NCBI GenBank assembly: GCA_022563285.1 | Contig: JADFNQ010000001.1 | Location: 1-24,830, forward strand | DNA: 24,830 nt | Reading direction: 5' to 3' | Origin: Chloroflexota bacterium | Lineage (GTDB): Bacteria > Chloroflexota > Dehalococcoidia > SM23-28-2 > RBG-16-64-32 | Part shown: piece by piece, positions 3,148 to 22,993 of the stretch | How the letters are laid out: each line of letters begins with the position of its first letter | Numbering within the stretch: the first letter of the stretch is position 1 | Position numbers and translations under genes: made by a program | Notes under the pieces: generated by a model | Told to the model about the DNA's origin: nothing | Databases searched by the model: none | The model's input: only the letters and a program-made list of their open reading frames with translations

Positions 3148-4032
3148 GTGGAGGGCCTTTCACTAACCACGTTCTGGCTGGCCCTGGGCCTCACCGCCGC
3201 GGCGGTGGTCTTCTACTGGGGCTACTCCTTCGGTGTGCGAGTAGCCGTGCGCCGCCTGGCAACCGACGGCGACGGCGGCATGACCGTCGCCACCTTCGAG
3301 AGGTTGCCGGAACCCCTGGGCAGGCTGGGCAGCCTGGCTACCTGGGCGGCGGCGGCCTTCCTGGCCGTATCGCTGTTCGCCCGCTGGCGGGCTGTGGGTC
3401 ACGCCCCCTGGTCCAACATGTGGGAGTTTACCGTCGCCTTCGCCGGCGGCATCCTGCTATTCTACATCGTGTTCGAGCGCCGGTACGGCCAGAGGGCGCT
3501 GGGCGCATTCATCCTGCCGGTGGTGCTGGCACTTCTGGCCGTAGCCGCCGCCTTCTTCCCGTCGGACGTGCAGCCCCTGGTACCCGCCCTGCAGAACCAG
3601 GACCTCCTGGCAATCCACGTAGCGATGATGGTCCTGGCCTACAGCGCCCTCAGCGTCTCCTTTGGCACCGGCGTAATGTATCTCCTCCAGGGGGAGAAGA
3701 ACCGCTTCCCGCGTCTGCCCAAGGCAACGCTCCTGGACGAGATCGGCTACCGCTCGGTAATGGTGGGCTTACCCTTGCTGGCCGTGGGGATCGCCTTGGG
3801 GGCGTACTGGGGCAACTCTGCCTGGGGTCGCTACTGGGGCTGGGACCCCAAGGAGACGTCGGCCCTGGTGACCTGGCTCATCTACGCCGGCTACATGCAC
3901 ACCCGAGGACTCCGCGGCTGGACGGGCACGCGAGCCGCCGTAATCCTGGTGCTGGGGTTCCTCGCCGTGATCTTCACCTTCTTCGTGGTGAACCTGTGGG
4001 TGTCCGGCCTCCACTCCTACGCCGGGGTGTGA
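3148..4032 (+). CDS. ccsA: System II cytochrome c biogenesis protein (heme-handling WWD-domain membrane protein, CcsA/ResC)
   Basis: Multiple hydrophobic helices, PWSNMWEF, VPALQ, AIH, the WWD motif AWGRYWGWDPKET and conserved His residues (YMH, GLHSYA). Confidence 0.93.
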   Translation: MEGLSLTTFWLALGLTAAAVVFYWGYSFGVRVAVRRLATDGDGGMTVATFERLPEPLGRLGSLATWAAAAFLAVSLFARWRAVGHAPWSNMWEFTVAFAGGILLFYIVFERRYGQRALGAFILPVVLALLAVAAAFFPSDVQPLVPALQNQDLLAIHVAMMVLAYSALSVSFGTGVMYLLQGEKNRFPRLPKATLLDEIGYRSVMVGLPLLAVGIALGAYWGNSAWGRYWGWDPKETSALVTWLIYAGYMHTRGLRGWTGTRAAVILVLGFLAVIFTFFVVNLWVSGLHSYAGV

Positions 4033-4038
4033 CCAAGC

Positions 4039-4067
4039 TTGACACCACAACAGCCGGTTGCTATCCT
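4039..4067 (+). promoter_or_regulatory. sigma70-type promoter for the rpsL superoperon
   Basis: Perfect -35 TTGACA (4039-4044), 17-nt spacer, extended -10 TG-c-TATCCT (TG 4059-4060, hexamer 4062-4067). A second TATCCT follows at 4068-4073. Predicted TSS about 4074. Confidence 0.8.
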
Positions 4068-4099
4068 TATCCTTTGGCGTCTGGTTCATAAGCCATATA

Positions 4100-4200
4100 C
4101 GCGAGACTAGCGGTCGGAAGGCCTCGCCGACGTGATCGGCGCACCGGATCAAGCCGTGCCGGTCTAGCGCGAACAGTCAGGCCTTCGGCCTTTTGTTTGT
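4100..4200 (+). ncRNA. Putative structured cis-regulatory leader of rpsL (three-way junction plus terminator-like hairpin)
   Basis: Closing stem CGCG/CTAG 4100-4110 with CTAG-CGCG 4164-4171; hairpin GTCGG 4113-4117 / CCGAC 4127-4131; hairpin 4137-4161. Manual pairing only, no family assigned. Confidence 0.5.
4179..4200 (+). terminator. Intrinsic terminator-like hairpin inside the rpsL leader
   Basis: AGGCC-ttc-GGCCT (4179-4191) followed by TTTGTTTGT. The stem can be extended through GAACAG 4171-4176. Confidence 0.5.
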
Positions 4201-4218
4201 GGAAGAAGGGATTCGCAG

Positions 4219-4638
4219 GTGCCAACTATTAACCAGCTGGTCCGCCATGGGCGGAAGCCGATGGTCAATAAGACCAAGGCTCCGGCCCTGCGTTTCCGTT
4301 ACAACGCGCTAAAGAACCGGATGGTGCGCGATAGGGGCGCACCCCAGAAACGGGGTGTCTGCACCAACGTGCGCACCCAGACGCCGAAAAAGCCGAACTC
4401 CGCCCTGCGCAAGGTGGCCAGGGTGCGCCTAACCAACGGGATTGAGGTGACCGCCTACATCCCCGGCGAGGGCCATACCCTCCAGGAGCACTCCGTGGTC
4501 CTAATCCGCGGCGGCCGCGTGAGGGACCTGCCCGGCGTTCGCTACCACATCATCCGGGGGGCGCTTGACGCTACAGGGGTGGACGGGCGCAGGCAGCAGC
4601 GCAGCAAGTACGGGACCCGTAGGACCGAAGGTCCTTAG
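4219..4638 (+). CDS. rpsL: 30S ribosomal protein S12
   Basis: GTG start. [27 protein letters not shown] and [12 protein letters not shown] motifs; carries the ~13-aa N-terminal insertion of the Firmicutes/Chloroflexota type. Confidence 0.99.
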
Positions 4639-4659
4639 TAGGCTTCGGGAGTCTGACCA

Positions 4660-5130
4660 GTGCCGCGCAGAGGTAAAGTAGTCCGCCGTCCAACGCCGCC
4701 CGACGCCAAGTACGGGAGCATCTGGGTTCAGATGATGATCAACAAGGTGATGAAGCGAGGAAAGAAGAGCACTGCTGAGCGCATCGTTTACGCAGCGATG
4801 GAGACGGCTGGGCAACGCACCAAGGACCCGCCGGCCCAGGTGATTGAATCGGCGATCCGCAACGTTATGCCCACCCTGGAGGTCCGCCCCCGACGCGTAG
4901 GCGGGGCTACCTACCAGATACCGCTGGAGGTACGTCCTTCGCGGCAGCTCTCCCTATCCATGCGCTGGATCCTCAGCAGCGCCCGTGCCCGCCAGGGCCG
5001 CCCCATGGCCGAACGCCTGGCCGCCGAACTCGTGGACGCCTACCGCCAGCAGGGCACGGCGGTCAAGCGTCGGGATGATACACACCGCATGGCAGAGGCC
5101 AATAAGGCCTTCGTTCACTACCGGTGGTAA
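4660..5130 (+). CDS. rpsG: 30S ribosomal protein S7
   Basis: [16 protein letters not shown] and [15 protein letters not shown] motifs. Confidence 0.99.
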
Positions 5131-5168
5131 CGGCAGCCCGGCCACGGTCTGAGTTGGGTATAGACATC

Positions 5169-7256
5169 ATGACAAGACAAGTGCCGATCGAATCACTGCG
5201 GAATATCGGGATCATCGCTCACATCGATGCTGGTAAGACCACGGTCACGGAGCGCATCCTGTTCTACACGGGACGCACCTACAAAATCGGTGACGTGGAC
5301 GCCGGCACTGCCGTCATGGACTGGATGGCCCAGGAGCGGGAGCGGGGGATCACCATCACCGCGGCCTCCACCACCACCAGCTGGCGGGACCAGGTGATCA
5401 ACATCGTGGATACCCCCGGCCACGTGGACTTCACGGTCGAAGTTGAACGCAGCCTTCGTGTCCTGGACGGGGGCGTTGTTGTATTCGATGCTGTCGCCGG
5501 AGTCCAGAGCCAGTCGGAGACCGTGTGGCGCCAGGCTGATCGCTACCATATCCCCCGCATCTGCTTCGTCAACAAGATGGACCGCGTGGGCGCCGACTTC
5601 TGGCGCACGCTGGGGATGATCAAGGAGCGCCTGAGCGCCCGGCCCGTGGCGATCCAGATCCCCATCGGCGCTGAGGACGCCCACCAGGGCGCCATTGACC
5701 TTGTGGAGATGAAGGCGATAACCTTCTCCGCAGACCGCGAGACGCCGCCGAAGGTTGAGCCTATCCCCGATGCCTATCTGACGGAGGCCCGGACCCGCCG
5801 CGAACAGCTCATCGAGGCGATAGCCGAAGTGGACGACCAGATGCTAATCAGCTACGTGGAGCACCACGACGTATCGCCTTCGGAGCTCAAGAAGGGGCTG
5901 CGACGTGCCGTCGTCAGCAACCTCGTCAACCCCGTCCTCTGCGGCGCCGCACTCAAGAACAAGGGTATCCACCCGCTGCTGGACGCGATCATAGATTATC
6001 TCCCATCACCGGCAGAGGTTCCGCCCGTCAAGGGGATCCACCCCAAGACGGGCGGCTTGATTGAGCGACGCCCCAGAGATGAAGAGCCGTTCGCCGCCCT
6101 CGCCTTCAAGGTCGTCGCCGACCCTTATGTGGGGCGCCTCGTCTACTTCCGCGTCTACTCCGGCTGCGCCAAGCAGGGGGCGGCTGTGCTCAACAGCGCC
6201 CGCGACAAGAAAGAGCGCCTGGGCCGCATCCTGCGCATGCACGCCAACCGGCGGGAAGATATAGATGATGTGAAGGCGGGTGACATCGCGGCCACGGTGG
6301 GCCTGAAGAACACATTCACCGGCGATACGCTTTGCGCCTTGGATGAGCCCGTGATCCTGGAGGCGATCAAGTTTCCGGACCCGGTCATCTCCGTGGCCAT
6401 CGAGCCCAAGACCAAGGACGACCAGGACCGCATGGCCGAGACGCTGGTCCGGCTGGGCGAAGAGGACCCCACCTTCCGTACCCGCTACGACTCCGAGACC
6501 GGCCAGACGATCATCTCCGGCATGGGCCAGCTCCACCTGGAGATCATCGTCGACCGCATGCTACGGGAGTTCAACGTGGAGGCCAACGTGGGCCGGCCTG
6601 AGGTCGCCTACAAGGAGACGATCGTTCAGCCGGCGCGGGCGGAGGGACGCTTCGTCCGCCAGACCGGCGGCCGCGGCCAGTTCGCCGTAGTCCAGCTAGA
6701 GGTGGAGCCTCAGCCGCGGGGCGCCGGATTCAAGTTCGAGGGCAAGATCATCGGTGGCGCCATCCCCCGCGAGTTCGTCCCGGCGGTGGAGCAGGGCGTG
6801 CGGGAGGCGCTGGAAACCGGCGTCTTATCCAACTACCCTGTGATAGACGTCAAGGTCACGCTTGTGGACGGTCAGCACCACCCGGTAGACTCCTCTGAGA
6901 TGGCGTTCAGGATGGCCGGGTCTCTGGGTGTCCAGGTAGGGCTGAAGCGCGGCAAGCCGATCTTGCTGGAGCCGTTCATGAAGGTGGAGGTGGCCACACC
7001 CGATGAGTTCTTCGGCGATGTGCTGGGGGACATAACCTCCCGCCGCGGCCACGTTGTGAACGTTGACCAGAGCGGCCATCTGCGGGTCATCTCTACTCTC
7101 ATCCCCCTGGCTGAGACGTTCGGCTACGCCACTGACCTGCGCTCCCTCAGCCAGGGTCGCGCCACCTACACTATGGAGTTCGATCACTATGAGGAGGTCC
7201 CCGTCTCCGTCGCCGAGCATGTCATCGGCCGGGTGCGGGGCGTAGTCCGCAGGTAG
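5169..7256 (+). CDS. fusA: Elongation factor G
   Basis: [29 protein letters not shown] and NKMD GTPase motifs. Start moved from the ORF-track 5124 to the in-frame ATG at 5169 ([14 protein letters not shown]). Confidence 0.98.
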
Positions 7257-7260
7257 AGCC

Positions 7261-7569
7261 ATGGCCCGCCAGAAGATCCGCATCCGCCTCAAGGCCTACG
7301 ACCACCGGATACTGGATCAATCGGCGGTGCTCATCGTCGAAGCGGCGGAGCGCACGGGGGCGGCCGTGGCCGGGCCGGTGCCATTGCCGACGGAGATCAA
7401 GAAGTTCTGCGTGATCCGCTCGCCCCACGTCGATAAGGACTCACGGGAGCAGTTCGAGATCCGCACCCACAAGCGTCTCGTGGACATCCTGGACCCCACG
7501 TCTAAGACCGTGGACGCCCTGATGCGTCTGCAACTGCCTTCGGGCGTAGACATCGAGATCAAGCTGTGA
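7261..7569 (+). CDS. rpsJ: 30S ribosomal protein S10
   Basis: [18 protein letters not shown] and [20 protein letters not shown]. Confidence 0.99.
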
Positions 7570-8198
7570 GCATCGAAGGCATCCTGGGACGCAAGCTGGG
7601 CATGGCCCAGATCTTCCGGGACGACGGCACCGCCGTCCCCGTGACGGTCATCGAAGCCGGGCCCTGCACCGTTGTCCAGGTAAAGACGGAGGAGAACGAC
7701 GGCTACTCCGCCGTACAGCTAGGGTTCAGCACCCGCAAGCGGGTCACCTCGCCCCAGAAGGGTCACATGAAGGGGCTGGGCCAGTTCCGGTACCTGCGTG
7801 AGTTCCGCGTGGACGATATCAGCGAGTGGGAAGTGGGGAAGAAGGTAGGATGTGAGATCTTCCAGGAGGGGGACATCGTGGACGTATCAGGGGCGTCGAA
7901 AGGCCGCGGCTTCGCCGGGGTGATGAAGCGCCACGGCTTCCACGGCGGGCCCCGCACCCACGGACAGTCGGACCGCGCCCGTGCCCCCGGCTCCATCGGC
8001 GCCGGGACGGATCCCGGCCGTGTAGTCAAGGGTAAGAAGATGGCGGGACACATGGGCACGGGCCAGATCACAGTCAAAAACCTGGAGATCGTCCAGTCAG
8101 ACCCTTCCCGCAACATCCTGATGGTGAAGGGCTCCGTCCCCGGCAGTGAGGACGTACTCTTGCGCGTCCGCCGCTCGAAGCACGGGAGGGCGCGGTAA
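7566..8198 (+). CDS. rplC: 50S ribosomal protein L3
   Basis: GTGA overlap with rps[27 protein letters not shown] and RAPGSIG. Confidence 0.99.
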
Positions 8199-8199
8199 C

Positions 8200-9090
8200 A
8201 TGAAGCTCGCCGTGCACAACGCCCAGGGCAAGCGGGTGCGCCAGATCACGGTGGACGATACTGTCTTCGGGATCGTGCCCAACGGCGCCGTGCTCCACCA
8301 GGCGTTCGTCGCTCAGCGCGCCAATCAGCGGCGGGGCAGCGCCAGCACCAAGTCCCGGGGCGAGGTTCAAGGCAGCACCCGCAAGATCCGCAGCCAGAAG
8401 TACACCGGCCGCGCCCGACAGGGGAGCAACCGCTCGCCCGTGCGGGTCGGCGGTGGCGTCGCTTTCGGGCCCCGGCCCCGCAGCTACCGCCAGGCCCTGC
8501 CCAAGAAGATGAGGCGGCTGGCGATCCGCTCCGCCCTATCGGGCAAGGTGGCGGACGGTCAGCTACACGTCGTCGACAAGATAGGCTTCAAGCGGCCGCG
8601 CACTAAGGACGTGATCCGTATCCTGAACAACGTGGGCATTGAGCGCTCCGCGCTCATCGTTACCGGCGAGCCGGACCGCTCCGTTCTGATCAGCGCCCGC
8701 AACCGCCCAAAGACGAAGGTTCTGCCCGCCGCCTACCTCAATGTAGTCGACATGCTCACGTATCGTGACCTTCTGCTGACGGAGGGGGCGGTACGCGCTG
8801 TCGAGGGGCTGTGGGGTGCCGCAGCTGCGAAGCCCGCCGCAGCCGCCGAGGAGCCGACCGCAGAGGCGGAGACGCCGCCGGAGGAGAAACCGCGCCGCCG
8901 CCGGCCCGCGGCCGCAAAGGCGGCAGCCCCGGAGGAGGCGCCGGCGAAGCCAGCCCGCCGTGCGAGCCGGCCCAAGGCTGAGGCCGCAGAGAAGACGGCG
9001 GCAGGGGCCGGCGAGAAGCCCAAACCAGTGCGGCGCCGCTCGCGCAACAAACCTGCCCTGAGCCCCGCCGAAGGGAAGGAGGAGGAGTAG
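8200..9090 (+). CDS. rplD: 50S ribosomal protein L4 with a 90-aa low-complexity C-terminal extension
   Basis: ATG at 8200, 1 nt after the rplC stop. QKxTGRARQGS, GGGVAFGPRPR and PKKMRRLA motifs; core ends about 8817. Confidence 0.98.
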   Translation: MKLAVHNAQGKRVRQITVDDTVFGIVPNGAVLHQAFVAQRANQRRGSASTKSRGEVQGSTRKIRSQKYTGRARQGSNRSPVRVGGGVAFGPRPRSYRQALPKKMRRLAIRSALSGKVADGQLHVVDKIGFKRPRTKDVIRILNNVGIERSALIVTGEPDRSVLISARNRPKTKVLPAAYLNVVDMLTYRDLLLTEGAVRAVEGLWGAAAAKPAAAAEEPTAEAETPPEEKPRRRRPAAAKAAAPEEAPAKPARRASRPKAEAAEKTAAGAGEKPKPVRRRSRNKPALSPAEGKEEE

Positions 9091-9093
9091 GCG

Positions 9094-9393
9094 ATGGCCA
9101 AGCCTGCCCATCCTCTGGAGGTGCTGCGCCGCCCCCTGATCACGGAGAAGGGGACAAGGCTGGGCGGCGAGAACAAGCACGTGTTTGAGGTTCGCCGTGA
9201 GAGCAACAAGCACCAGATCAAGGAGGCTGTGGAGAAGGCCTTCGACGTGCGTGTCCTCAACGTGAATGTGATGAATGTCAAGGGGAAGCCACGGCGTAGC
9301 AGGGGCAGGCGAATACTCCACCGGCCGGACTGGAAAAAGGCCGTGGTGGCCCTCCACCCTGACGACAAGATCGAGCTGTTCGAAGGGCTGTAA
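9094..9393 (+). CDS. rplW: 50S ribosomal protein L23
   Basis: PLITEK, NKHQIKEAVE and WKKAVV. Confidence 0.98.
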   Translation: MAKPAHPLEVLRRPLITEKGTRLGGENKHVFEVRRESNKHQIKEAVEKAFDVRVLNVNVMNVKGKPRRSRGRRILHRPDWKKAVVALHPDDKIELFEGL

Positions 9394-9396
9394 GCG

Positions 9397-10227
9397 ATGG
9401 GTATCAGGCAGTACAAACCAACATCGCCGGGGCGCCGCGGCGCCAGCGGCTACACCTTCGAGGAGATCACCAAGAAGCGGCCGGAGAAGTCGCTCCTCGC
9501 TCCCCTTAAGAAGAGCGCCGGACGGAACAACCAGGGCCGGATCAGCGTGCGGCATCGCGGCGGGGGCCACAAGCGCCGCCTGCGAATTATCGACTTCAAA
9601 CGGGACAAGACCGGCGTGCCCGGCAAAGTAGCCGCCATAGAGTACGATCCCAACCGCTCCGCCCGCATCGCCCTCATCCACTACGCGGACGGAGAGAAGC
9701 GGTATATCATCTGGCCCGTCGGCCTCGCCGTAGGCGATACCGTGATGGCGGGCCCAAAGGCGGAGATCAAGCCCGGCAACGCTCTGCCCTTGCGCAACAT
9801 CCCCGCCGGCAACAGCGTGCACAACCTGGAGCTGCACAAGGGCCACGGCGCACAGCTGGCGCGCGGGGCGGGCAGCTCGGCGCAGCTCATGGCCCGCGAA
9901 GGGGACTACGTAATGGTCCGCCTGCCCTCCGGCGAGGTGCGCCGCGTCCACGCCGATTGCATGGCCACTGTTGGCCAGGTGGGCAACGTGGAGCATGACC
10001 AGATCAAGCTGGGACGGGCCGGCCGCAAGCGGCATCTGGGCCGGAGGCCCAAGGTGCGCGGCAGCGCGATGAACCCCCGTGACCACCCCCACGGCGGCGG
10101 CGAGGGAAAGGCTCCCATCGGCCTGCCCGGGCCCAAGACGCCCTGGGGCAAACCCACCCTCGGCTACCGCACCCGCCGCCGCAAGGACACCAACAAGTAC
10201 ATCGTACGCAGACGATTCGACGTGTAG
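9397..10227 (+). CDS. rplB: 50S ribosomal protein L2
   Basis: [25 protein letters not shown] and [14 protein letters not shown]. Confidence 0.99.
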
Positions 10228-10235
10228 GAGAGCCG

Positions 10236-10526
10236 ATGTCTCGTTCGACCAAGAAGGGGCCCTACGCGGACCCCAAGCTGATGAAGAAGGTGGAGCAGGT
10301 AGTGCGCTCCGGCCAGAAGACCGTTATCCGGACCTGGGCCCGCCGTTCCACCATCATGCCGGAGATGGTGGGCCTCACCATCGCCGTGCATGACGGCCGC
10401 CGCCACGTGCCCATCTTCATCACTGAGAACATGGTCGGCCATAAGCTGGGTGAGTTCGCACTGACCCGGACGTTCCGCGGCCACGGCGGCAAGTCCGCCC
10501 AGGTCAGCCAGGTGCGGAGGTATTAG
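10236..10526 (+). CDS. rpsS: 30S ribosomal protein S19
   Basis: RSTKKGP and [13 protein letters not shown]. Confidence 0.99.
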
Positions 10527-10531
10527 GCGGG

Positions 10532-10870
10532 ATGGAAGTGCGAGCCTACGCCCATAACGTCTCCATCGCGCCCAAGAAGGCGCGGCTCATCCTGGATGAG
10601 ATCCGCGGCATGCGCGTGGATGAGGCGATGTCCCTCCTGCGCTTCATGCCCACGCCGCACGCGCGCATCGTCGCCAAGGCCGTGCGCTCCGCCGTCGCTA
10701 ACGCCGAGAACAACTACAACCTTCAACCGCGAAGCCTGCGCATAGCAAAGGCCTACGCCGGGGACGGCATGACCTTCCGCCGGATGCGACCACGGGCCCG
10801 CGGCCGCGCCGATATCATGCGGCGCCGCAAGAGCAACATAACCATAGTCGTCCAGGAAGAGGAGCTCTAG
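10532..10870 (+). CDS. rplV: 50S ribosomal protein L22
   Basis: [16 protein letters not shown] and RPRARGRA. Confidence 0.99.
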
Positions 10871-10871
10871 C

Positions 10872-11675
10872 ATGGGCCAGAAGGTACACCCCCACGGCTT
10901 CCGGCTGGGCTACATCTACGACTGGAGCGCCAAGTGGTTCGCCGGCCGTGATTACCCACAGCTCCTGCAGGAGGACCTGGCCATCCGCAAGACCATCAGC
11001 GATCTCCTTCCGGATGCCGGCATATCGTCTGTAGAGATAGAGCGCAACGCAAACCTGATCACGGTGGCTGTGAACACGGCGCGCCCGGGCATCGTCATCG
11101 GGCGCGGGGGCCAGCGGGTGGACGAGCTCCGGGCCGCCCTGGAGAAGGCGAGCGGTCGCAAGATCCGCGTCAACATCAACGAGATACGCATGCCGGAGGT
11201 AGACGCTGCCCTGGTCGCGCGCGCCGTGGCGGACCAGTTGGAGCGTAGGATCTCCCACCGGAGGGCTATCAAGCAGGCGATCGCCCGCGCCATGCAGCGC
11301 GGCGCCCAGGGCATCAAGATCAAGGTTGGAGGGCGTCTGGGCGGGTCCGATATGTCCCGCAAGGACCAGGGGATGGAGGGCCGCGTCCCGCTGCACACCA
11401 TCAGGGCGGACATAGACTACGGCACCGCGGAGGCCCGCACCGCCCTGGGGCGCATCGGCGTCAAGGTGTGGGTCTACAAGGGCGACCGCATTATCGAAGA
11501 GCCAGCGCAGGTGCAGCGCCGGCGTCCTCGGAAGGAAGGCGCCGAGGCGGGGGAGCAGCCGGAGGCGGGGGAGCAGCCGGAGGCCGCGGCCGAGGCGCCG
11601 GAGGTGGAAGCGGCGGTAGCCACAGAACCTGAGCCTAAACCTGAAGCTGAGGCTGAACCGGATGCTACAGCCTAA
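10872..11675 (+). CDS. rpsC: 30S ribosomal protein S3 with a ~62-aa C-terminal extension
   Basis: [35 protein letters not shown] and [10 protein letters not shown]. Confidence 0.99.
11544..11584 (+). repeat. Perfect 18-nt tandem duplication (EAGEQP x2) in the rpsC tail
   Basis: GAGGCGGGGGAGCAGCCG at 11544-11561 and 11562-11579, plus a partial GAGGC. Confidence 0.9.
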
Positions 11676-12078
11676 ACGGACCAAATTCCGCAAGACCCAC
11701 CGAGGCCGCCGCGCTGGCCGCGCCGGCGTCGGCAACGCCGTCACCTTCGGCGATTTCGGCCTGCAGGCTCTGGGCACCTGCTGGATGACCGCTCGTCAGA
11801 TAGAGGCCGGACGGCGGGCGATCACCCGCTACGTCCGCCGCGGTGGAAAGCTCTGGATACGCGTCTTCCCTGACAAGCCGGTGACGAAGAAGCCGCTGGA
11901 GACGAGGCAGGGATCGGGCAAGGGCCCAGTAGAGTTCTGGGTTGCGGTCGTGAAGCCCGGCCGCATCATTTATGAGATCGCCGGGGTGCGCGAGGACACC
12001 GCACGCGAGGCTATGCGCCTGGCCTCCCACAAGCTGCCGATACATACCCGCTTCGTGTTGCGGGAGGCGGTGGCGTAA
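11662..12078 (+). CDS. rplP: 50S ribosomal protein L16
   Basis: [20 protein letters not shown] and [11 protein letters not shown]. Overlaps the rpsC end by 14 nt. Confidence 0.99.
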
Positions 12079-12090
12079 GAGAGTAATGAG

Positions 12091-12318
12091 ATGGCGAAGA
12101 AGCTAAAGACGAAGACCCAAGACATACGCAAACTCTCGGACGAGGACCTGGTGAAGCAGCTGGAGGAGGCGCACCGCCGCCTGTTCTCCCTGCGACTCCA
12201 GAAGGAGACCCACCAGATCACCAACCATCGCGAGCTGCCGAGGGCGAAGCGTCTCATCGCGCGGCTGAAGACGATCCTGCGGCAGAGGCAGCTCGCAGGC
12301 ATCGGGGAGGCGCAGTAG
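12091..12318 (+). CDS. rpmC: 50S ribosomal protein L29
   Basis: Position after rplP; [16 protein letters not shown] and [11 protein letters not shown]. Confidence 0.95.
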
Positions 12319-12320
12319 GC

Positions 12321-13031
12321 ATGGGCCGGTTGGCTCACGGCGGTCACAAGACCCGCGAGGGCACGGTAGTGTCCGACAAGATGGACAAGACCGTCGTCGT
12401 GGCGGTGGCGAGCAGCGTCAGGCACCGTCTCTACAAGAAGATCGTCCGGCGACTTCGTCGCTACAAGGCCCACGACGAAACCAATGACGCCAAGCTGGGT
12501 GACCGTGTCCGCATCGTGGAGTCCCGGCCCTACTCCCGGCACAAGCGCTGGCAGCTCATCGAGGTGTTGATCCGCGCCGACCGGCCCGAAGTGGCCCCCG
12601 AGGAGATAGACTTGGAGCTCCTGGGCGAAGTGAAGGCAGAAGAGGAGGCCGCCCCGGAAGTCCCGGAGGTCGAGGCCGAACCGGAGGTCGCGGAGGAGCC
12701 GGAGGCGAAGGAGGAGCCGGAAGCGGAGGAGCCGGAGGCCGAGGCCGAACCGGAGGTCGCGGAGGAGCCGGAAGCGGAGAAGGAACCAGAAGCGGAGGAG
12801 GAGCCGGAGGCCGCGGCCAAACCGGAGGCGGAGGAGGAGCCAGAAGCGGAGGAGGAGCCGGAGGCGAAGGAGGAGCCGGAGGCGAAGGAGGAACCGGAGG
12901 TGGAGGAGGAGCCGGAAGCGAAGGAGGAGCCGGAGGCTGAGGCAGAAGTGGAGGCGGAACCGGAGGCAGCGGAGGAGCCGGAAGCCGAGGCAGAGGAAGC
13001 GGAAGGCGAGGAGAAGGAGGGATCATCGTGA
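12321..13031 (+). CDS. rpsQ: 30S ribosomal protein S17 with a 150-aa acidic repetitive C-terminal extension
   Basis: [33 protein letters not shown] and KRW core (aa 1-86), followed by xEEPEA repeats. Confidence 0.98.
12672..12986 (+). repeat. In-frame imperfect 18-nt minisatellite (about 17 units, consensus xEEPEA) in rpsQ
   Basis: Units such as GAGGAGGAGCCGGAGGCG. A 32-nt block is exactly duplicated at 12672 and 12741. Confidence 0.95.
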
Positions 13032-13396
13032 TCCAGTCCTCCTCTCGACTCCGTGTCGCCGATAACTCCGGCGCCCGGCAGGTGATGTGCATTAAGGTGC
13101 TCGGCGGCACCCGGCGCCGTTATGGCAGCGTGGGCGATATAATCGTCGCCTCCGTCAAGCATGCCGCCCCGGGCGGCGCCGTCAAGAAGGGGGACGTAGT
13201 GCGGGCCGTCGTCGTCCGCGTGGCGCAGACCTATCGGCGCGACGACGGCTCCTACATCCGATTCGACGACAATGCGGCTGTCATCCTGACCGATGCCTAC
13301 AACCCTCAGGGGACGCGCATCTTCGGGCCCGTGGCCCGCGAGCTTCGAGAGCGCAACTTCATGAAGATCGTCTCCCTGGCCCCGGAGGTGTTGTAG
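13028..13396 (+). CDS. rplN: 50S ribosomal protein L14
   Basis: GTGA overlap with rps[17 protein letters not shown] and [13 protein letters not shown]. Confidence 0.99.
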
Positions 13397-13398
13397 GC

Positions 13399-13713
13399 AT
13401 GCAACGGGTGAAGAAGGAGGACACAGTCCTCGTTACCAAGGGCAAGGACAGGGGCAGGAGCGGCCCCGTGAAGCTGGTCATACCCGGGAAGAACCGCGTC
13501 ATCGTCACCGGCATTAACATCGTGAAGCGGCACATGCGGCCGCGCGGGCCGCAGCAGCCCGGCGGTATCATCGAGCGCGAGGCGCCAATCTCCCTCGCCA
13601 ACGTCCGTCCCCTGTGCCCCTCCTGCGATAAGCCCGTGCGGGTGGGCTTTCGTGTCCTGGCGGACGGTCGTAAGGTGCGTTACTGTAAGAAGTGCGATGC
13701 GAATTTCGATTGA
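13399..13713 (+). CDS. rplX: 50S ribosomal protein L24 (four-Cys zinc-ribbon type)
   Basis: VKKEDTVLVTKGKDRG KOW motif and GGIIEREAP; CPSC...CKKC. Confidence 0.98.
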   Translation: MQRVKKEDTVLVTKGKDRGRSGPVKLVIPGKNRVIVTGINIVKRHMRPRGPQQPGGIIEREAPISLANVRPLCPSCDKPVRVGFRVLADGRKVRYCKKCDANFD

Positions 13714-13726
13714 GGATGTGTAGCAG

Positions 13727-14272
13727 GTGGCTCCGAGACTGAAAGAGAGATACCGCCAGGAGGTAGTGCCGGCCCTGATCAAGGAGTTCGGCTACGCCAA
13801 CGTCATGCAGGTACCGCGGCCTGATAAGGCCAGCGTCAACATCGGCCTGGGAGAGGCCGTGTCGGACGCGAAAGCGCTGGACTCCGCCACCGCAGACGTG
13901 AGCATAATCACCGGGCAGAAGCCCGTGATCACCCGCGCCAAGCGGTCTATCGCCAACTTCAAGCTGCGCGAGGGGATGCCCATCGGTGTGATGGTCACTA
14001 CGCGGGGGGATCGCATGTGGGAGTTCCTGGACCGGCTGCTGAACGCCGCCCTTCCCCGCATTCGCGACTTCCAGGGCCTCTCACCTAGCTCCTTCGACGG
14101 CCGCGGCAACTTCAGCCTCGGCATCCGCGAGCAGCTCATGTTCCCCGAGATCGATTACGATAAGGTCGACCGTATCCGGGGGCTTCAGATAACCATCGTT
14201 ACCACAGCCAGGACGGACGAAGAGGGGAAGCGGCTGTTGGAGCTTCTGGGGATGCCCTTCGCGGGGCGTTAG
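13727..14272 (+). CDS. rplE: 50S ribosomal protein L5
   Basis: [32 protein letters not shown] and LLELLGMPF. Confidence 0.99.
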
Positions 14273-14282
14273 GGGACAGTAA

Positions 14283-14471
14283 GTGGCCCGCAAAGCGCTG
14301 TACGAGAAGACGTTCAACAAGAAGCCGAAGTTCCGGGTACGGCACCGCAACCGCTGCCATCGCTGCGGGCGCCCGCGCGCCTACCTGCGCGCCTTCGCTC
14401 TCTGCCGTATCTGCTTCCGGCAGCTAGCCCTGCTGGGACATCTGCCGGGGGTAAAGAAGTCCAGCTGGTAG
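14283..14471 (+). CDS. rpsZ: 30S ribosomal protein S14, short zinc-binding type Z
   Basis: GTG start. RCHRCGRPR...LCRICFR...PGVKKSSW. Confidence 0.97.
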
Positions 14472-14481
14472 GACAAGCAAG

Positions 14482-14877
14482 ATGAATACCGACCCGATCG
14501 CCGACATGCTTACCCGAATCCGGAACGCCCTTCAGGCGCGGCACGACTTCACCAATATGCCCGCGTCCAAGGTTAAGCTCTCTCTGGCGGAGACCCTCAA
14601 GAAGGAGGGCTTCATCCGGGATTACGAGGTGCTCCAGGAGGGGCTGAGGCGGACGATTCGCGTGCACCTTGCCTACACCGATAACCGGGAGCCGGTCATA
14701 ACCGGCCTCAAGCGGGTGAGCAAGCCTGGGCTGAGGGTATACGCCAAGAAGCGCGAAGTGCCGCGGGTGTACGGCGGCTTGGGGATAGCCATCCTCTCCA
14801 CCTCTCAGGGCCTGCTCAGCGGCGGTGAGGCCCGAAAGCGCGGTCTCGGCGGCGAAGTCGTCTGCCACGTGTGGTAA
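14482..14877 (+). CDS. rpsH: 30S ribosomal protein S8
   Basis: [21 protein letters not shown] and LSTSQG...GGEVVCHVW. Confidence 0.99.
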
Positions 14878-14965
14878 GGGTAATAACATGGAGCACGGTG
14901 CAAGGAACAGCAAGCTTGGGGGCCTAAGGGTTCTCGTTCCCAGTACCCTGTTACCCGTTAACGGG
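14878..14965. other. Intergenic imperfect inverted repeat plus a 12-bp palindrome between rpsH and rplF
   Basis: GGGTAAtaaCA 14878-14888 pairs with TGTTACCC 14949-14956; GGAAC 14904-14908 with GTTCC 14936-14940; CTTGG 14915-14919 with CTAAG 14924-14928. Palindrome CCCGTTAACGGG at 14954-14965. Confidence 0.6.
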
Positions 14966-14985
14966 GGAGATGGGGAGGGGTGCGC

Positions 14986-15531
14986 ATGTCCCGCGTAGGC
15001 AAGATGCCGATAGCCATACCCAGCGGCGTGGAGGTGCGGATCGAGGGGGCCAAGGTCACCGTCAAGGGCCCCAAGGGCGAACTCAGCCGCGATCTGGAAC
15101 CCGATATGAAGCTCAACCTCAGCGACGGCGTACTCACCGTCGATCGGCCCAGCGATAAGCCCCGCCACCGCTCTGCGCACGGCCTCACCCGTACCCTGAT
15201 CCAGAATATGGTCAGCGGCGTTACCGAGGGGTTCGCCAAGACCCTGGAGCTTCAGGGTGTAGGCTACCGCGCCCAGATGCAGGGGCCCAACCTGGTGCTC
15301 GCCGTGGGCTACTCCAGGCCGGTGGAGGTTCCGCCGCCGCCGGGGATAGAGTTCGAGGTGGAAGGCACCACGCGGGTGACCGTGAAGGGGATCAGCAAGG
15401 AAGGCGTGGGCCAGGCCGCCGCCGATGTCCGCAAGGTCAGGCCGCCGGAGCCCTACAAGGGCAAGGGCATCCGCTACGTGGGCGAGTACGTCCGCCGCAA
15501 GGCGGGCAAGGCGGGCAAGGCGATTCACTGA
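14986..15531 (+). CDS. rplF: 50S ribosomal protein L6
   Basis: SD GGAGGGG then ATG at 14986. [15 protein letters not shown] and [11 protein letters not shown]. Confidence 0.99.
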
Positions 15532-15533
15532 GC

Positions 15534-15902
15534 ATGAAGAAGACCAAGACTCCTTTCGCAGCGCGAAGACGACGCCACCGCCGGGTGCGCCGGAGGATCA
15601 GCGGCTCCCCCGTGCGCCCGCGGCTGGCTGTCTTTCGCAGCCTGAACCACATCTACGCTCAGGTCATTGACGACAGCAGTGGCCGCACCCTTGTGGCCGC
15701 TTCCGATATGGAGGCTGACCTGCGAGGCCAGCGCAACGGCAAGAAGAAGAGCCAGGTAGCCAAGCTGGTAGGGGACTCTATCGCTCGTAAGGCGATCGAC
15801 AAGGGGATCAAGACGGTCGTCTTCGATCGCGGCGGCTTCAAATACCACGGCCGTGTTAAGTCCCTGGGCGACGCGGCCCGAAAGGGAGGGCTCTCCTTCT
15901 AA
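15534..15902 (+). CDS. rplR: 50S ribosomal protein L18
   Basis: [18 protein letters not shown] and [13 protein letters not shown]. Confidence 0.99.
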
Positions 15903-15913
15903 CTGAGGTGGTC

Positions 15914-16450
15914 ATGTCCAATCCGGGAAAGTACATCGCCAAGCGGGAAAAGATAGACGTCTCCGAGATGGAGATCACGGAGAAGGTAGTCTACATCAAC
16001 CGCGTAGCGAAGGTGATGAAGGGCGGCCGCCGCTTTCACTTCACCGCCGTAGTGGTGGTGGGCGATGGCGCTGGCCACGTGGGCGCCGCCCTGGGCAAGG
16101 CGAGGGAGGTCCCCGAGGCGATCCGCAAGGCCTCGACCATCGCCCGCAAGCACATGATCAGCGTACCCATTGTGGACACCACCATCCCCCACCCCCTCCT
16201 CACTCGCTTCAGCGCCTCCCAGGTGCTGCTCAAGCCGGCGGCGCCCGGCACCGGCCTCATCGCCGGCGGCGGTATCCGCGCCGTGCTGGAGGCGGCGGGA
16301 GTGAAGGACGCCGTGACCAAATCCCTCGGCTCCAAGAACCCGGCCAACGTGGTCAAGGCGACGATCCTGGGCCTATCTAGGATGCGTTCTCCGGAGGAGG
16401 CGCTGGCCCGACGGCGGTCCGTATCTGCGGCGGCATCCAGAGATGGCTAA
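15914..16450 (+). CDS. rpsE: 30S ribosomal protein S5
   Basis: [27 protein letters not shown] and [13 protein letters not shown] at 15914 preferred (GAGG SD) over GTG at 15908. Confidence 0.98.
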
Positions 16451-16631
16451 GCTTCGTATAAGTTGGCGTAAGAGCGCCATCGGCTATGGCGGTGACCAGA
16501 AGCGCACGATCGAGGCGCTGGGTCTGCGCCGGCTGGGGCACACTGTGGAGCATTCCGACACGCCTGCTATACGTGGTATGATTAACAAGGTTCGGCACCT
16601 TATTGAGGTTGCTGAGGTTCCCCAGGACTGA
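16443..16631 (+). CDS. rpmD: 50S ribosomal protein L30
   Basis: [15 protein letters not shown] and [13 protein letters not shown]. Confidence 0.98.
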
Positions 16632-17092
16632 TGCTTGCCCACGAACTTAGACCGCCCAGGGGGTCTAAACGCGCCCGAAAGCGGGTGGGCCGCGGCAATG
16701 CCAGCGGCCATGGCACCTATTCCGGACGCGGCCTTAAAGGACAGAAGTCTCGCGCGGGGCACAAGCCCAAGCTGGGGTTCGAAGGCGGCCAGACCAAGCT
16801 GATCAAGCGCCTGCCCAGGCGACGCGGCTTCACCAACATCTTCCGCAAGGAGTACGCCGCGGTAAACCTGCGCGACCTGGAGCGGTTCCAGGCGGGGACT
16901 GAGGTGACGCCGGAGCTGCTCAAGCAGTCGGGCGTGCTGAGGACGCTGCGGCGACCGGTGAAGGTGCTGGCGACGGGCGAACTGACAAAGGCTCTGACCG
17001 TGAAGGTGCATAAGTTCTCTATGACCGCAAAGGCGAAGATCGAGGCGGCGGGCGGCGCTGCCCAGGAGATCGGCGATGGCGACGGCGGCTAG
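16631..17092 (+). CDS. rplO: 50S ribosomal protein L15
   Basis: [27 protein letters not shown] and AKIEAAGG. Confidence 0.99.
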
Positions 17093-18449
17093 ATCGCAGC
17101 AGTCGCAGCGTCCCCAACTGCTCCAGGCGGCCTACAACGCGCTGTTCCAGCCGGACATCCGCGCGAAGATGCTGTTCACCTTCGCCATGCTGGTGATCTT
17201 CCGCTTCGTGGCGAACCTGCCGGTGCCCGGGACCAATCCGGCGGCCCTCTCGCAGATCTTCGAGAACAGCACCGTCCTGGGGTTCCTGAACATCTTCAGC
17301 GGCGGCGCCCTCCAGAACATGAGCGTCGCCGCCATGGGCGTCTACCCCTACATCACCTCGTCCATCATCATGCAGCTCATGGTCCCTCTGATCCCCACCC
17401 TGAAGGCGCTGTCGCGGGAGGGGGAGCAGGGGCGGCGCCAGATACAGATATACACCCACTGGATGACCGTGCCTATGGCTCTCGTCCAGGGCTACGGTCA
17501 GCTGATCCTTATCCAGAGCCAGGGAGGGTTCGCGGGCACCGCGGGCATCGGCCTCACCGGCGAGCAGGCCCTGCCTACCCTGTCCATGATCATCTCCATG
17601 ACCGCCGGCACCATGTTCGTGGTCTGGCTGGGCGAGCTCATCAGCGAACGAGGGATCGGGAACGGCATCTCCATCATGATCTTCGCCGGCATCATCGCCG
17701 GACTGCCTCAGTTCGTCGCCGGCCAGCTCTACACCGGCACCGGGGACACGGTCAGCAGCACCATCCTCCTTGGGGGATTGATGATCGGCCTGGTCTACGT
17801 GATCGTTGTCGTCCAGGAGGCGCAGCGGCGGATCCCCGTCCAGTACTCGCGCAGCGTCTTCCGTAGTGGCCGCATGTATCGCCAGTCCGGCCAGACGCAC
17901 ATCCCCCTGCGGGTGAACACCGTGGGGATGATCCCCCTTATCTTCGCCTTCTCTATCATCATCTTCCCGGCCTACGTCGGCAGCATATTCGCCACTTCCG
18001 ATAACGCTTTCGTCGCCGGCGCGGCCGATTGGATACAGGGCGTGTTCGACCCCGGCAACTTTGGCTACTGGGCGTTCCTATTCGTAACCGTTGTGATCTT
18101 CACCTTCTTCTATACGCTGGTCATCTTCGGGCAACAGAACCTGGCGGAGAACCTCCAGCGCCAGGGGGGCTTCGTTCCCGGCATCCGGCCGGGGCGTCCC
18201 ACTGAGGAGTACATCAACCGCGTGCTGATGCGCATCACCTGGGGCGGCGCCTTCTTCCTGGGCTTTATCGCGGTTGCGCCGTTCATATTCGCTGCCATCG
18301 TGGGGGGAAACTTCGCCCTGACCGGCCGCTCAGCCGCCTTTGGAATAACCTCCAGCGGCCTGATCATCGTCGTGGGCGTGGTCCTCGATACCCTGCGCCA
18401 GATCGAGTCCCAACTCCTCATGCGCCAGTATGAAGGGTTCATCCGGTAG
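17076..18449 (+). CDS. secY: Preprotein translocase subunit SecY
   Basis: [44 protein letters not shown] and FVPGIRPG, with about 10 hydrophobic segments. Confidence 0.99.
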
Positions 18450-18465
18450 GGGGCAGACGACAAGC

Positions 18466-19125
18466 TTGTATCTAATCTTGTTGGGTCTGCCGGGAGCGGG
18501 CAAAGGCACTCAGGCTACCCTACTATCCCAGGACACGGGCATGGCGCACATAACCAGCGGAGAGCTCTTTCGCGAAAACATCCGCGGGAAGACGGAGCTG
18601 GGCCGCAAGGCCCAGCCGTTCGTGGAGCGTGGCCTCCTGGTCCCCAACGAGTTGACGGTCGGCATGATCCTTGAGCGCATCTCTCAGCCGGATGCCCGGC
18701 GGGGCTTCCTGCTGGACGGGTACCCGCGAAACCTGGAGCAGGCGAGGGCGCTAGATCGGGCGCTGGCCGCCCAAGAGAAGGCGATCGACAAAACCCTTTA
18801 CATCAAGGTCTCTGATGAGGAGCTAGTCCGCCGCCTCGCCGGCCGCTGGAACTGCCGTCAGTGCGGGGCGGTCTACCACGAACAGAGCATGCCCCCCAAG
18901 CAGAGCGGCGCCTGCGACCGCTGCGGCAGCGCCCTGTACCAGCGCGAGGACGACCGCCCTGACGTAGTCCGCACCCGGCTTGAGGTCAACCTGAAGGAGC
19001 TGGAGCCCCTGCTGGCGTATTACCGGAAAGACGGAAAGCTGATTGAGGTGGACGGAGAGCTGGAAGTGGAACGGGTAAAGGAGAAGCTCCTGGCTGCGGT
19101 AGGCCGCCCTCAGGAGGTGCCCTAG
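18466..19125 (+). CDS. adk: Adenylate kinase with a zinc-binding LID domain
   Basis: P-loop GLPGAGKGTQA, FLLDGYPRN and LID CRQC...CDRC. Start placed at the in-frame TTG 18466 after the secY stop. Confidence 0.97.
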   Translation: MYLILLGLPGAGKGTQATLLSQDTGMAHITSGELFRENIRGKTELGRKAQPFVERGLLVPNELTVGMILERISQPDARRGFLLDGYPRNLEQARALDRALAAQEKAIDKTLYIKVSDEELVRRLAGRWNCRQCGAVYHEQSMPPKQSGACDRCGSALYQREDDRPDVVRTRLEVNLKELEPLLAYYRKDGKLIEVDGELEVERVKEKLLAAVGRPQEVP

Positions 19126-19131
19126 GCCACC

Positions 19132-19881
19132 ATGCCCATCATCCTCAAGTCCCGAGACGAGGTCGCCATTATGCGCGAGGCCGGCCGTATCCTGGCTGAG
19201 GTGCGTGAGATCGTGGTGGACCGCCTGCGCCCCGGCCTGGTGGAGAAAGAGCTGGACGAGGTGGCGCGCAAGGAGTTCAAGAAGCGTAAGGTCGTTCCAG
19301 CCTTCCTCGGCTACCTGGGCTATCCGGCAACCGTATGCGTGTCCGCTAACGATAAGATCGTGCACGGCATTCCGGGCGACCGCGAGTTGATGGACGGCGA
19401 TATCGTCAGCATCGACATCGGCTGCATCTACAAGGGGTTCGTGGCTGACTGTGCGGTGACCATAGGCATCGGCGACGTCTCCCCGGAGGCGCAGCGCCTC
19501 ATTGATGTGACGCGAGAGGCGCTGAACAGGGGAATAGGAGCCGCTCGCGCCGGCGCCCGGCTGGGTGAGATAGGCGCCGCCATACAAGGCTATGTAGAGG
19601 GTGAGGGCTTCTCTGTGGTGCGGGAGTACGTGGGCCACGGCGTGGGCCGCCAGATGCACGAAGACCCTCAGGTGCCGAACTACGGCCGCCCTGATTCCGG
19701 CCCTATCCTCAAGGAGGGCATGGTCATCGCCATCGAGCCGATGGTTAACGCCGGTGACTGGCGCACTAAGCGGGACTCGGACAACTGGACCGTTCGGACA
19801 CTGGATGGCAGCCTGTCCGCCCACTTCGAGCACACCCTTGCCATACGAGACGGTGAGGCAGAAGTGCTGACTTTGCCGTAG
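19132..19881 (+). CDS. map: Methionine aminopeptidase type I
   Basis: VHGIP, SIDIG, ADCA, GHGVG, IEPM and AHFEHT metal-site motifs. Confidence 0.98.
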   Translation: MPIILKSRDEVAIMREAGRILAEVREIVVDRLRPGLVEKELDEVARKEFKKRKVVPAFLGYLGYPATVCVSANDKIVHGIPGDRELMDGDIVSIDIGCIYKGFVADCAVTIGIGDVSPEAQRLIDVTREALNRGIGAARAGARLGEIGAAIQGYVEGEGFSVVREYVGHGVGRQMHEDPQVPNYGRPDSGPILKEGMVIAIEPMVNAGDWRTKRDSDNWTVRTLDGSLSAHFEHTLAIRDGEAEVLTLP

Positions 19882-19903
19882 AATATAAGCTTTGGAGGTA
19901 GAT

Positions 19904-19951
19904 ATTCAAGGAGGTGACCGCCGAAACGCCCGCTATGGGCGGGGGCGCTGA
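19904..19951 (+). other. Candidate small upstream ORF (ATT start, or TTG at 19892) whose TGA overlaps the infA ATG
   Basis: GGAGGT 19894-19899, ATT 19904, 15 codons [18 protein letters not shown] 19949-19951 (TGATG overlap). Translation is not demonstrated. Confidence 0.3.
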
Positions 19952-20169
19952 TGGGGAAAAAAGAAGCAATAGAGGTTGAGGGGGTAGTTAAAGAGAACTT
20001 GCCCAACGCGTTTTTTCGTGTAGAATTGCCTAATGGGCACAGGATCCTCGCCCATGCGTCTGGAAAGATCCGGATGCACTTCATCCGCATACTGCCCGGC
20101 GATCGCGTGCTGGTGGAGCTCTCCCCTTACGACTTAAGCCGGGGCAGGGTGACCTATCGCTTCAAGTAA
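19951..20169 (+). CDS. infA: Translation initiation factor IF-1
   Basis: [33 protein letters not shown] and [17 protein letters not shown]. Confidence 0.99.
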
Positions 20170-20178
20170 GGTTCTATA

Positions 20179-20292
20179 GTGAAGGTATCGGCATCCGTCA
20201 AACGCCGCTGTGATAATTGCAAGGTCGTGCGCCGCCGAGGGGTGGTGCGCGTGATCTGTCGCAACCCCCGCCACAAGCAGAGGCAGGGGTAG
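20179..20292 (+). CDS. rpmJ: 50S ribosomal protein L36 (zinc-binding form); below the ORF-track size cutoff
   Basis: GTG start; [37 protein letters not shown]. Confidence 0.98.
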
Positions 20293-20301
20293 GAGGGGTT
20301 C

Positions 20302-20685
20302 ATGGCTCGCATAGCTGGAGTGGATATACCCCGAGACAAGCGCGTCGACGTATCGCTGCGCTACATCTACGGTATAGGCATCACCGTAGCCAACCAGATA
20401 TGCACTCACGCCGCCGTATCGGGCGAGACGAAGGTCCGGGAGCTGACGGACGATGAGATCTCCCGCATCCGTGAGTACATAGACCGCAACTTCATCGTAG
20501 AGGGCGAGCTGCGCAAGCAGGTGCGCCAGAACATCCAGCGGCTTGTAGAGATCAACAGCTACCGGGGCATACGCCACCGCCGCGGCCTGCCCGTACGCGG
20601 GCAGCGCACTCAGACCAACGCCCGCACCAAGCGGGGCGCCCGCCGCACCGTGGCCGGCAGGCGGCGCGCCGTGGCCAAGAAGTAA
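20302..20685 (+). CDS. rpsM: 30S ribosomal protein S13
   Basis: [16 protein letters not shown] and [26 protein letters not shown]. Confidence 0.99.
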
Positions 20686-20694
20686 GGGAGCAGA

Positions 20695-21090
20695 ATGGCG
20701 GAACGGAAGACAAAAGCACGCACGCGCAAACGAGAGAAGAAGAACGTCCCCACGGGGCTGGCCTACATCCAGTCCAGCTTTAACAACACCACCATCACGT
20801 TGACCGACCCCAACGGCAACGTTCTCTCCTGGGCCAGCGCTGGCACCGCCGGCTTCAAGGGCTCCCGCAAGAGCACTCCCTATGCGGCCGGGCTGGCCGC
20901 CGAAGCAGCCGCCCGCCGGGCCATGGACCACGGCCTGCGGCAGGTGGACGTGCGAATTAAGGGGCCCGGCAGCGGCCGAGAAGCGGCGATCCGCTCCCTG
21001 CAGGCCGCCGGCATACAGGTCACCAGCATCCGTGACGTGACACCGATACCACACAACGGCTGTCGTGCGCGCAAGCGACGGCGAGTTTAG
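20695..21090 (+). CDS. rpsK: 30S ribosomal protein S11
   Basis: [26 protein letters not shown] and [11 protein letters not shown]. Confidence 0.99.
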
Positions 21091-21097
21091 GAGGGAT

Positions 21098-21724: not shown

Positions 21725-21734
21725 GGGATAGTCA

Positions 21735-22991: not shown

Positions 22992-22993
22992 GC

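Follow-up and report, generated by a model that had tools for sequence, protein, structure and literature searches.

Structured RNAs located upstream of rpsL are represented in Rfam by rpsL_psuedo and rpsL_ricks. Attenuation in the leader of the E. coli S10 operon depends on L4 and NusA and involves a long hairpin followed by a U run. In B. subtilis, the rplJL and infC-rpmI-rplT leaders adopt competing folds that are shifted toward terminator forms by the binding of L10(L12)4 and L20, respectively. To our knowledge, the leader RNAs of ribosomal proteins differ from phylum to phylum, and none has been catalogued for the Chloroflexota.

Few genes are preceded by predicted attenuators as often as rpsL (Naville and Gautheret 2010, PMC2965389), and the same study described 'multiform' leaders of rpsL in Listeria, Xanthomonas, Pseudomonas, Rickettsia, and streptococci that have no common sequence or structure. 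It cited earlier predictions of rpsL attenuators by Merino and Yanofsky, discussed S7 as a possible but unproven ligand of rpsL leaders, and cited the translational operator for S7 in the rpsL-rpsG spacer of E. coli (PMC2965389). Among the 20 ribosomal leaders reported by Eckert and Weinberg, none belongs to S12 or S7 and none comes from Chloroflexota (PMC7247131).

The leader described here lies in a window (the whole stretch of DNA that was analyzed, 24,830 nt) in which rpsL follows a ccsB-like gene (Pfam Cytochrom_C_asm) that ends at 4032. The 186-nt spacer between the two genes contains both a promoter and the leader, which were resolved into the following features.

4039-4067, + strand: sigma-70-type promoter (TTGACA at 4039-4044, 17-nt spacer, TATCCT at 4062-4067)
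4079-4111, + strand: 5' hairpin, in which 4079-4088 pairs with 4103-4111 (RNAalifold, seven close relatives)
4112-4124, + strand: block Q, GGUCGGAAGGCCU, the 5' strand of a long-range helix or, self-folded, a tetraloop hairpin at 4112-4123
4125-4178, + strand: variable rod interior, with helix 4134-4142:4156-4164 at the tip and short helices within 4126-4133:4167-4177
4179-4190, + strand: block T, AGGCCUUCGGCC, the 3' strand of the long-range helix or part of a small local hairpin, 4179-4183:4187-4191
4191-4199, + strand: U tract, UUUUGUUUG, directly 3' of the helix
4198-4218, + strand: ribosome-binding region; a weak hairpin, 4198-4203:4212-4217, carries the purine-rich Shine-Dalgarno sequence GAAGGG (4205-4210) in its loop
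4219-4638, + strand: rpsL (S12), GTG start at 4219, Pfam S12 match

Like the 'multiform' rpsL leaders (PMC2965389), this leader lies 5' of rpsL-rpsG-fusA, joins a terminator-like stem to a T stretch, offers alternative pairings, and is lineage-specific. It differs from them in its rod, closed by GGUCGRAAG:CUUUCGGCC, in its occurrence in Chloroflexota, and in preceding a fused str-S10-spc-alpha cluster that lacks tuf. The position before rpsL is shared with rpsL_psuedo and rpsL_ricks, but neither matched at its gathering score. The E. coli S10 leader likewise has a long leader hairpin and a U run, and rpsJ-rplC-rplD lie downstream in the gene run of the window; however, the window leader precedes rpsL rather than rpsJ, and a role for L4 here would be pure analogy, with no sequence likeness seen. 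The E. coli S7 operator belongs to the same operon and presumably the same kind of autogenous control, yet it is intercistronic and translational, whereas the window RNA is a 5' leader and the rpsL-rpsG spacer is 21 nt. Competing leader folds with a terminator among them are shared with the B. subtilis rplJL and infC-rpmI-rplT leaders, although those belong to other operons and have other folds, and protein binding is only proposed here.

No Rfam family was matched at its gathering score in the window leader or in the leaders of 19 relatives (4227 families, Rfam 15), and no match at E≤10 was found in the window between 3950 and 4750. Attenuators before rpsL are a known kind of element; the structure and the lineage found here are new. 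The preliminary description of this DNA had called the leader a novel attenuator, which is right for the structure and not for an attenuator before rpsL, which had already been described (PMC2965389). With this motif the 'multiform' rpsL leaders gain one more structurally distinct form, not a new kind of regulation. It is a defined candidate control element at the first gene of an apparent, very long operon of translation genes in an abundant, uncultured sediment lineage.

The rpsL promoter has 10/12 matches, with TG ahead of the second hexamer, and no better promoter-like site occurs in 20 kb; transcription is predicted to begin near 4074-4076. The order TTGACA, TA-rich hexamer, TTGGCG recurs 5' of rpsL in relatives with other upstream genes. 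Because the promoter and the leader are kept while the upstream genes differ among relatives, the element belongs to rpsL. The same variation, and the promoter that sits between, led us to reject the leader as a terminator of ccsB. A leader peptide was also rejected, as no Shine-Dalgarno sequence with a start codon was seen in the leader, and the ORFs that overlap it (3420-4091 on the + strand, 3769-4152 on the - strand) were taken as chance frames of G+C-rich DNA.

A TTGGCG box (or TTGGCA, TTGGTG; 4074-4079 in the window) was observed 6-8 nt past the -10 hexamer of rpsL promoters throughout the class. It occupies the same place in L001-L030, in L151-L157, and in many of L160-L245, and was kept even in L193 with its very short leader. 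One rRNA promoter (L246) has a similar TTGGCAG 3' of its -10 hexamer. The promoters of translation genes may share this box as a conserved start or discriminator region.

Downstream of the leader, Pfam matches and ORF spacing delineated a gene run at 4219-23356, in which rpsL is followed by rpsG, fusA, rpsJ, rplC, rplD, and further S10, spc, and alpha genes, passing through secY, adk, map, infA, rpsM, rpsK, rpsD, rpoA, and rplQ. Weak promoter-like sites, which may act as internal promoters, were noted within this run at 16555, 19999, and 20188. The rpsL-rpsG-fusA genes are joined straight to rpsJ with no tuf between, and the gaps in the run are 0-21 nt, apart from wider ones ahead of rplF (approximately 100 nt), infA (69 nt), and rpsM (132 nt). 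From this tight spacing, we infer that the whole of approximately 20 kb may be controlled from a single point, as had been proposed.

In the window, the hairpin AGGCC-UUC-GGCCU at 4179-4191 is followed by TTTTGTTTG at 4191-4199, and GAAGGCCT (4117-4124) and AGGCCTTC (4179-4186) are exact reverse complements of each other. The preliminary description had placed all of these, and the promoter, correctly. Block T reads CCUUCGGCC, and GCCU comes directly after block Q. With G4117 bulged, 4112-4116 pairs with 4186-4190 and 4118-4124 with 4179-4185 in a helix of 12 bp. This long-range helix is the minimum free energy (MFE) state of the window leader; its duplex was calculated at -20.8 kcal/mol, versus -5.4 kcal/mol for the self-hairpin of block Q and -6.8 kcal/mol for the small hairpin, and when folding of the growing transcript was modeled it dominated once 4186 had emerged.

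Structure prediction showed that the leader beyond the 5' hairpin forms a long irregular rod with GGUCGRAAG:CUUUCGGCC at its base (4112-4124 with 4179-4190) and the U-rich tail next to it. The 5' hairpin carries compensatory changes among the seven close relatives (AU/UA in columns 9:37, UA/CG in 14:32, CG/GU in 15:31), and the window's own MFE contains a smaller variant, 4077-4080:4099-4102 plus 4082-4086:4091-4095. The rod-tip helix shows a change from U.G to C-G at 4136:4162 in the same relatives. The hairpin in the ribosome-binding region had no covariation support because its pairs are mostly invariant. A three-way junction had been described at 4100-4171; that span folded as a four-way junction when taken alone, and both the full leader and the seven-relative consensus gave the rod. 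The hairpins described with it, hairpin 1 (GUCGG/CCGAC) and hairpin 2 (GAUCGG/CCGGAUC), were not kept in relatives, where the conserved local hairpin is GGUC[GRAA]GRCC. A pairing of UUGGC at the 5' end with GCCAA at the start codon appeared in the consensus and was set aside as a probable artefact that arises from two conserved strings; the likely start at 4074-4076 may leave out the U residues.

The MFE of the leader was not unusual (z = -0.96), and when the 145-nt leader was shuffled by dinucleotides, 10% of the shuffles contained a perfect 8-nt inverted repeat, so that the sequence alone is not beyond chance. Terminator-like patterns were not enriched in the window. Besides the U tract, only two other 9-nt stretches in these 24.8 kb of 65% G+C contain 7 T or more. 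The leader is held to be real because it is conserved in relatives, not on the strength of single-sequence statistics.

To assess conservation, rpsL was anchored in 40 relatives and 260 nt upstream were read. The leader was present in 29/30 order-level rpsL loci. Alignment A1 consisted of 34 close leaders, and comparisons were made in all 69 rows (68 distinct; 34 close and 35 class-level). In A1, blocks Q (GGUCGRAAG(R)C) and T (CUUUCGGCY then UUUUGUU) were invariant, with GGUCG.A.G.C identical in all 34 leaders, and 11-98 variable nt separate Q from T among relatives. The form of block T found in relatives, CTTTCGGCYTTTTG, occurred once per genome, at rpsL, and the idea of a generic terminator was rejected on this ground. 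A covariance model built from A1, R1, gave one strong match per genome, always at rpsL. When R1 was applied to other orders of the class, the motif was found before rpsL on the correct strand at 28/86 loci with E<0.01 and at 34 with E≤1; by our own matching of loci to family labels, these represent about 20 families. Under strict filters, the motif was not found in 134 genomes sampled from other classes of the phylum. A pattern scan for Q plus T through the whole collection returned mostly chance matches in unrelated phyla, with only 10 loci at rpsL.

Identical leaders were present in contigs labelled 'Chloroflexota bacterium' (the genus of the window) and 'Dehalococcoidia bacterium', and DNA of the stretch was present in marine-sediment and sediment metagenomes from 11 studies. 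A search of RNA datasets for 1.6 kb around the leader found none that contained it, the runs listed sharing only 0.00-0.04 of its sequence words. Judged by this conservation, the element is a real, single-copy RNA leader of rpsL. It represents, as far as sequence comparison can tell, an uncatalogued class-wide motif in the 5' leader of the rpsL mRNA of a marine-sediment Chloroflexota lineage with relatives labelled Dehalococcoidia. A second block-T string, GGCTTTCGGCCTTTTGC, was seen in one relative (L159, G037:C1:425587-425633), intergenic and upstream of a prs-like gene; R1 scored it at only 23.8 bits, and it is probably an ordinary terminator.

The conserved core of the motif pairs GGUCGRAAG (4112-4120) with CUUUCGGCC (4182-4190), 9 nt that are complementary and close the variable, rod-like domain. 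For A1, RNAalifold drew no consensus structure other than this Q:T helix, and for a separate alignment of 29 class-level leaders it drew the helix again, together with an invariant inner UGA:UCA pairing. Cells of the helix were paired at 98% in A1. Over the 69 rows the value was 96%, versus 92.4 ± 0.5% when shuffled (0/2000 shuffles reached the observed value), and at the four variable positions it was 92% versus 83.5 ± 1.0% (0/5000), in comparisons that are inflated by kinship and in which half of the rows had been aligned by a model that contains the helix. Double-sided changes were found at four pairs: Q6:T4 occurs as A-U, G.U, and G-C; Q7:T3 as G-C and U.G; Q8:T2 as C-G, G-C, U-A, and U.G; and Q9:T1 as A-U in five leaders. 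About 20 cells of the helix were unpaired among the 69 rows. In 33/34 leaders of A1 the pairing probability of Q:T was at least 0.56 and mostly about 1, and the helix was on average approximately 6 kcal/mol better than the two-hairpin state. The 5' UTR of this ribosomal-protein operon thus holds a conserved, structured RNA with covariation, as is characteristic of autogenous leaders.

A U-rich tail follows the helix directly in 69/69 leaders, with approximately four times the U content of the leader body. The 8 nt after block T contain on average 6.0 U in the close set and 4.7 in the class set, versus 1.4 expected from leader composition, and at least 3 of the first 4 nt are U in 64/69 leaders. 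In the window, the G+C-rich stem ends at 4190 and passes directly into the U tract at 4191-4199, as in an intrinsic terminator, and helix and tail have this geometry approximately 20 nt before the ribosome-binding site. The 'loop' of the putative terminator is atypical in being a structured insert of 50-100 nt: the compact hairpin at 4179-4191 has only 5 bp, and the stable stem of the window encloses approximately 55 nt of structured RNA. Among relatives, 8-60 nt lie between the conserved domain and the ribosome-binding site. Tails outside the order of the window are often only UUUCACUG or UAUCACUG. Tails such as UUUCACUG are poor terminators, and a translational or structural role therefore stays a live rival to termination.

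Two local hairpins compete with the long helix. The self-hairpin of block Q, GGUC[GRAA]GRCC (GGUC[GGAA]GGCC at 4112-4123 in the window), retains 4/4 pairs in 54/69 leaders and is mutually exclusive with Q:T. Its loops are mostly of the GNRA type (GAAA, GGAA, GAGA, GGGA, GCAA, GUAA), with all four bases occurring at N. Covariation of its stem is weak, the stem being nearly invariant, with U.C or U.U in two leaders; an extended long helix would also account for its 3' arm, and the hairpin is missing in families f18 and f35 and at locus L178. The small hairpin at 4179-4191 keeps at least 4 of its 5 pairs in 42/69 leaders. Conservation is lowest for this hairpin among the three helices, and it was never the MFE structure. 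The self-hairpin is the best candidate for the competing fold. The loops of the self-hairpin (GRAA) and of the small hairpin (UUYC) are complementary, and from their sequences the RNA could possibly exist as two hairpins, as two kissing hairpins, or as one extended duplex; a kissing contact lies beyond the scoring of nested-structure energy models. A choice between two hairpins and one terminator-like duplex would be a compact model for co-transcriptional folding decisions.

The interior of the rod was compared among class-level leaders. Most families outside that of the window keep the interior strands AAAGUGAYAACGG and CUGGCUCAGNAAUAAGG (L160-L245), and the interior UGA and G.UCA are invariant in 29/29 leaders (alignment A3, columns 22-36 and 99-117). 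These strands are likely to form a ligand-binding internal loop. The family of the window has replaced this interior.

The reading that we prefer, with a probability of about 0.5, is that the leader is an uncatalogued structural variant of the rpsL-leader attenuator, in which attenuation occurs at the long helix and U tract under feedback by a ribosomal protein. With the self-hairpin formed, block T would be left with a weak local hairpin of 4-5 bp, and if the self-hairpin persisted during transcription, RNA polymerase would read through. Closure of the long helix would place a strong stem at the U tract, and transcription would stop. Closure might be promoted by a ribosomal protein encoded downstream that binds the conserved interior, which would provide feedback on the operon; analogy would point first to S7, and S12, S10, or L4 could take its place. 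In this model, we infer termination as such, which way the switch works, and which molecule acts on it. A default off state is not expected of an essential, highly expressed operon, yet the long helix prevails at equilibrium, so that the model needs kinetic control; a factor that promotes closure of the helix is probably needed.

The same switch was read in the opposite sense in the preliminary description, where the small hairpin with its U tail was the terminator and the pairing 4117-4124:4179-4186 was an antiterminator under the control of a protein or metabolite. The small hairpin with its tail does match a simple terminator pattern, and the 8-nt complementarity is exact in the window and competes with that hairpin. 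However, the pairing is the inner part of the 12-bp MFE helix, running on into 4112-4116:4186-4190, so that the 3' arm beside the U tract stays paired and the proposed loss of termination does not follow. The full 8-nt register is confined to the genus of the window (5/34 close and 0/35 class-level leaders). The weakness of the small hairpin and its limited conservation speak against it as the terminator, as do L002 and L004, which keep block T but lack the 5' arm of the small hairpin. We consider this sense of the switch improbable; what did stand is the broader proposal that the rpsL operon has a conserved leader RNA that acts in cis, offers mutually exclusive pairings, and ends like a terminator. 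Alternatively, the element could be a constitutive partial terminator or pause site that sets the expression level or uncouples the operon from upstream read-through without sensing. This would agree with thermodynamics that favor a single state and with our failure to identify a ligand or effector. Plain terminators normally keep shape, not sequence, whereas here both strands are invariant, the interior UGA and G.UCA occur throughout the 29 leaders, and a competing hairpin is conserved, which is more than a plain terminator needs; we regard this alternative as more improbable still.

A role without termination has a stronger claim, although we still think it rather unlikely. The rod would then be a translational operator that binds a ribosomal protein, or a stabilizing domain that protects the 5' end, and the tail a ribosome standby or S1-binding site immediately 5' of the Shine-Dalgarno sequence. 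The end of the domain 8-60 nt before the ribosome-binding site suits such a role, as do the U-rich but poorly terminating tails outside the order, a closed form whose stability at equilibrium befits a constitutive structure, and the ability of the 3' half of the U tract to pair with bases before the start codon; S7, moreover, acts on translation of the E. coli operon (cited in PMC2965389). Against it, the conserved helix does not sequester the Shine-Dalgarno sequence, the G+C stem that abuts a U run in all 69 leaders is the signature of a terminator, and rpsL leaders elsewhere are predicted attenuators. A more unusual form of switch is doubtful. In it, the leader would be an isomerization riboregulator that alternates between two hairpins with complementary loops (GNRA and UUYC) and one duplex that also serves as the stem of the terminator. 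Its ligand, sensed through the invariant interior strands (AAAGUGAYAACGG and CUGGCUCAGNAAUAAGG in most families), would be a small molecule or a ribosomal protein other than S7, and the leader would govern the fused str-S10-spc-alpha cluster of approximately 20 kb from a single point.

The leaders were also compared with the 16S and 23S rRNA of relatives, and no convincing mimicry that would point to an effector was found. The candidates in 16S 1337-1395 (GAAGGCGGAGUCGC ... GGUCAGCAAUAC ... GGUGAAUACG) and in 23S (CAAAGUGAUCCUACGGU) were matches of the 7-of-9 type only. They were rejected, as several such matches are expected by chance in 4.5 kb by our estimate, and they were inconsistent between genomes and absent from the family of the window. 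A boxA or Nus-factor site was rejected as well: the leader strand GGCUCAGNAAUAA shares only GCUCA with the boxA of rRNA leaders, differs at the U-rich core, and is absent from the family of the window. The rRNA leaders of relatives themselves carry boxA-like GCUCAUUAACAA and GCUCUUUAAUAA approximately 150-200 nt 5' of 16S (L247, L248, L249), with two TTGACA-type promoters upstream in L247 and L249.

Other rpsL leader forms were observed within the class. In family f2 of the same order (L151-L157), the TTGGCG box is followed by one long hairpin and a U-rich tail. The hairpin strands are GGCGCCGAGG...CUCGGCGCC or GCCGAGGG...CUCUCGGCC, the form GCCGAGRG...CUCUCGGCC, and this leader may be either a minimal ancestor from which the motif arose or a reduced version of it. 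Low-G+C families of the class without the Q/T motif have another hairpin, GAUGAGCCC...GGGCUCAUC then UUUAGUGUU, which lies just 5' of the rpsL ribosome-binding site in L169, L170, L191, L203, L205, L212, L227, L240, L242, and L245. This hairpin looks like a second, unrelated terminator-like form of rpsL leader.
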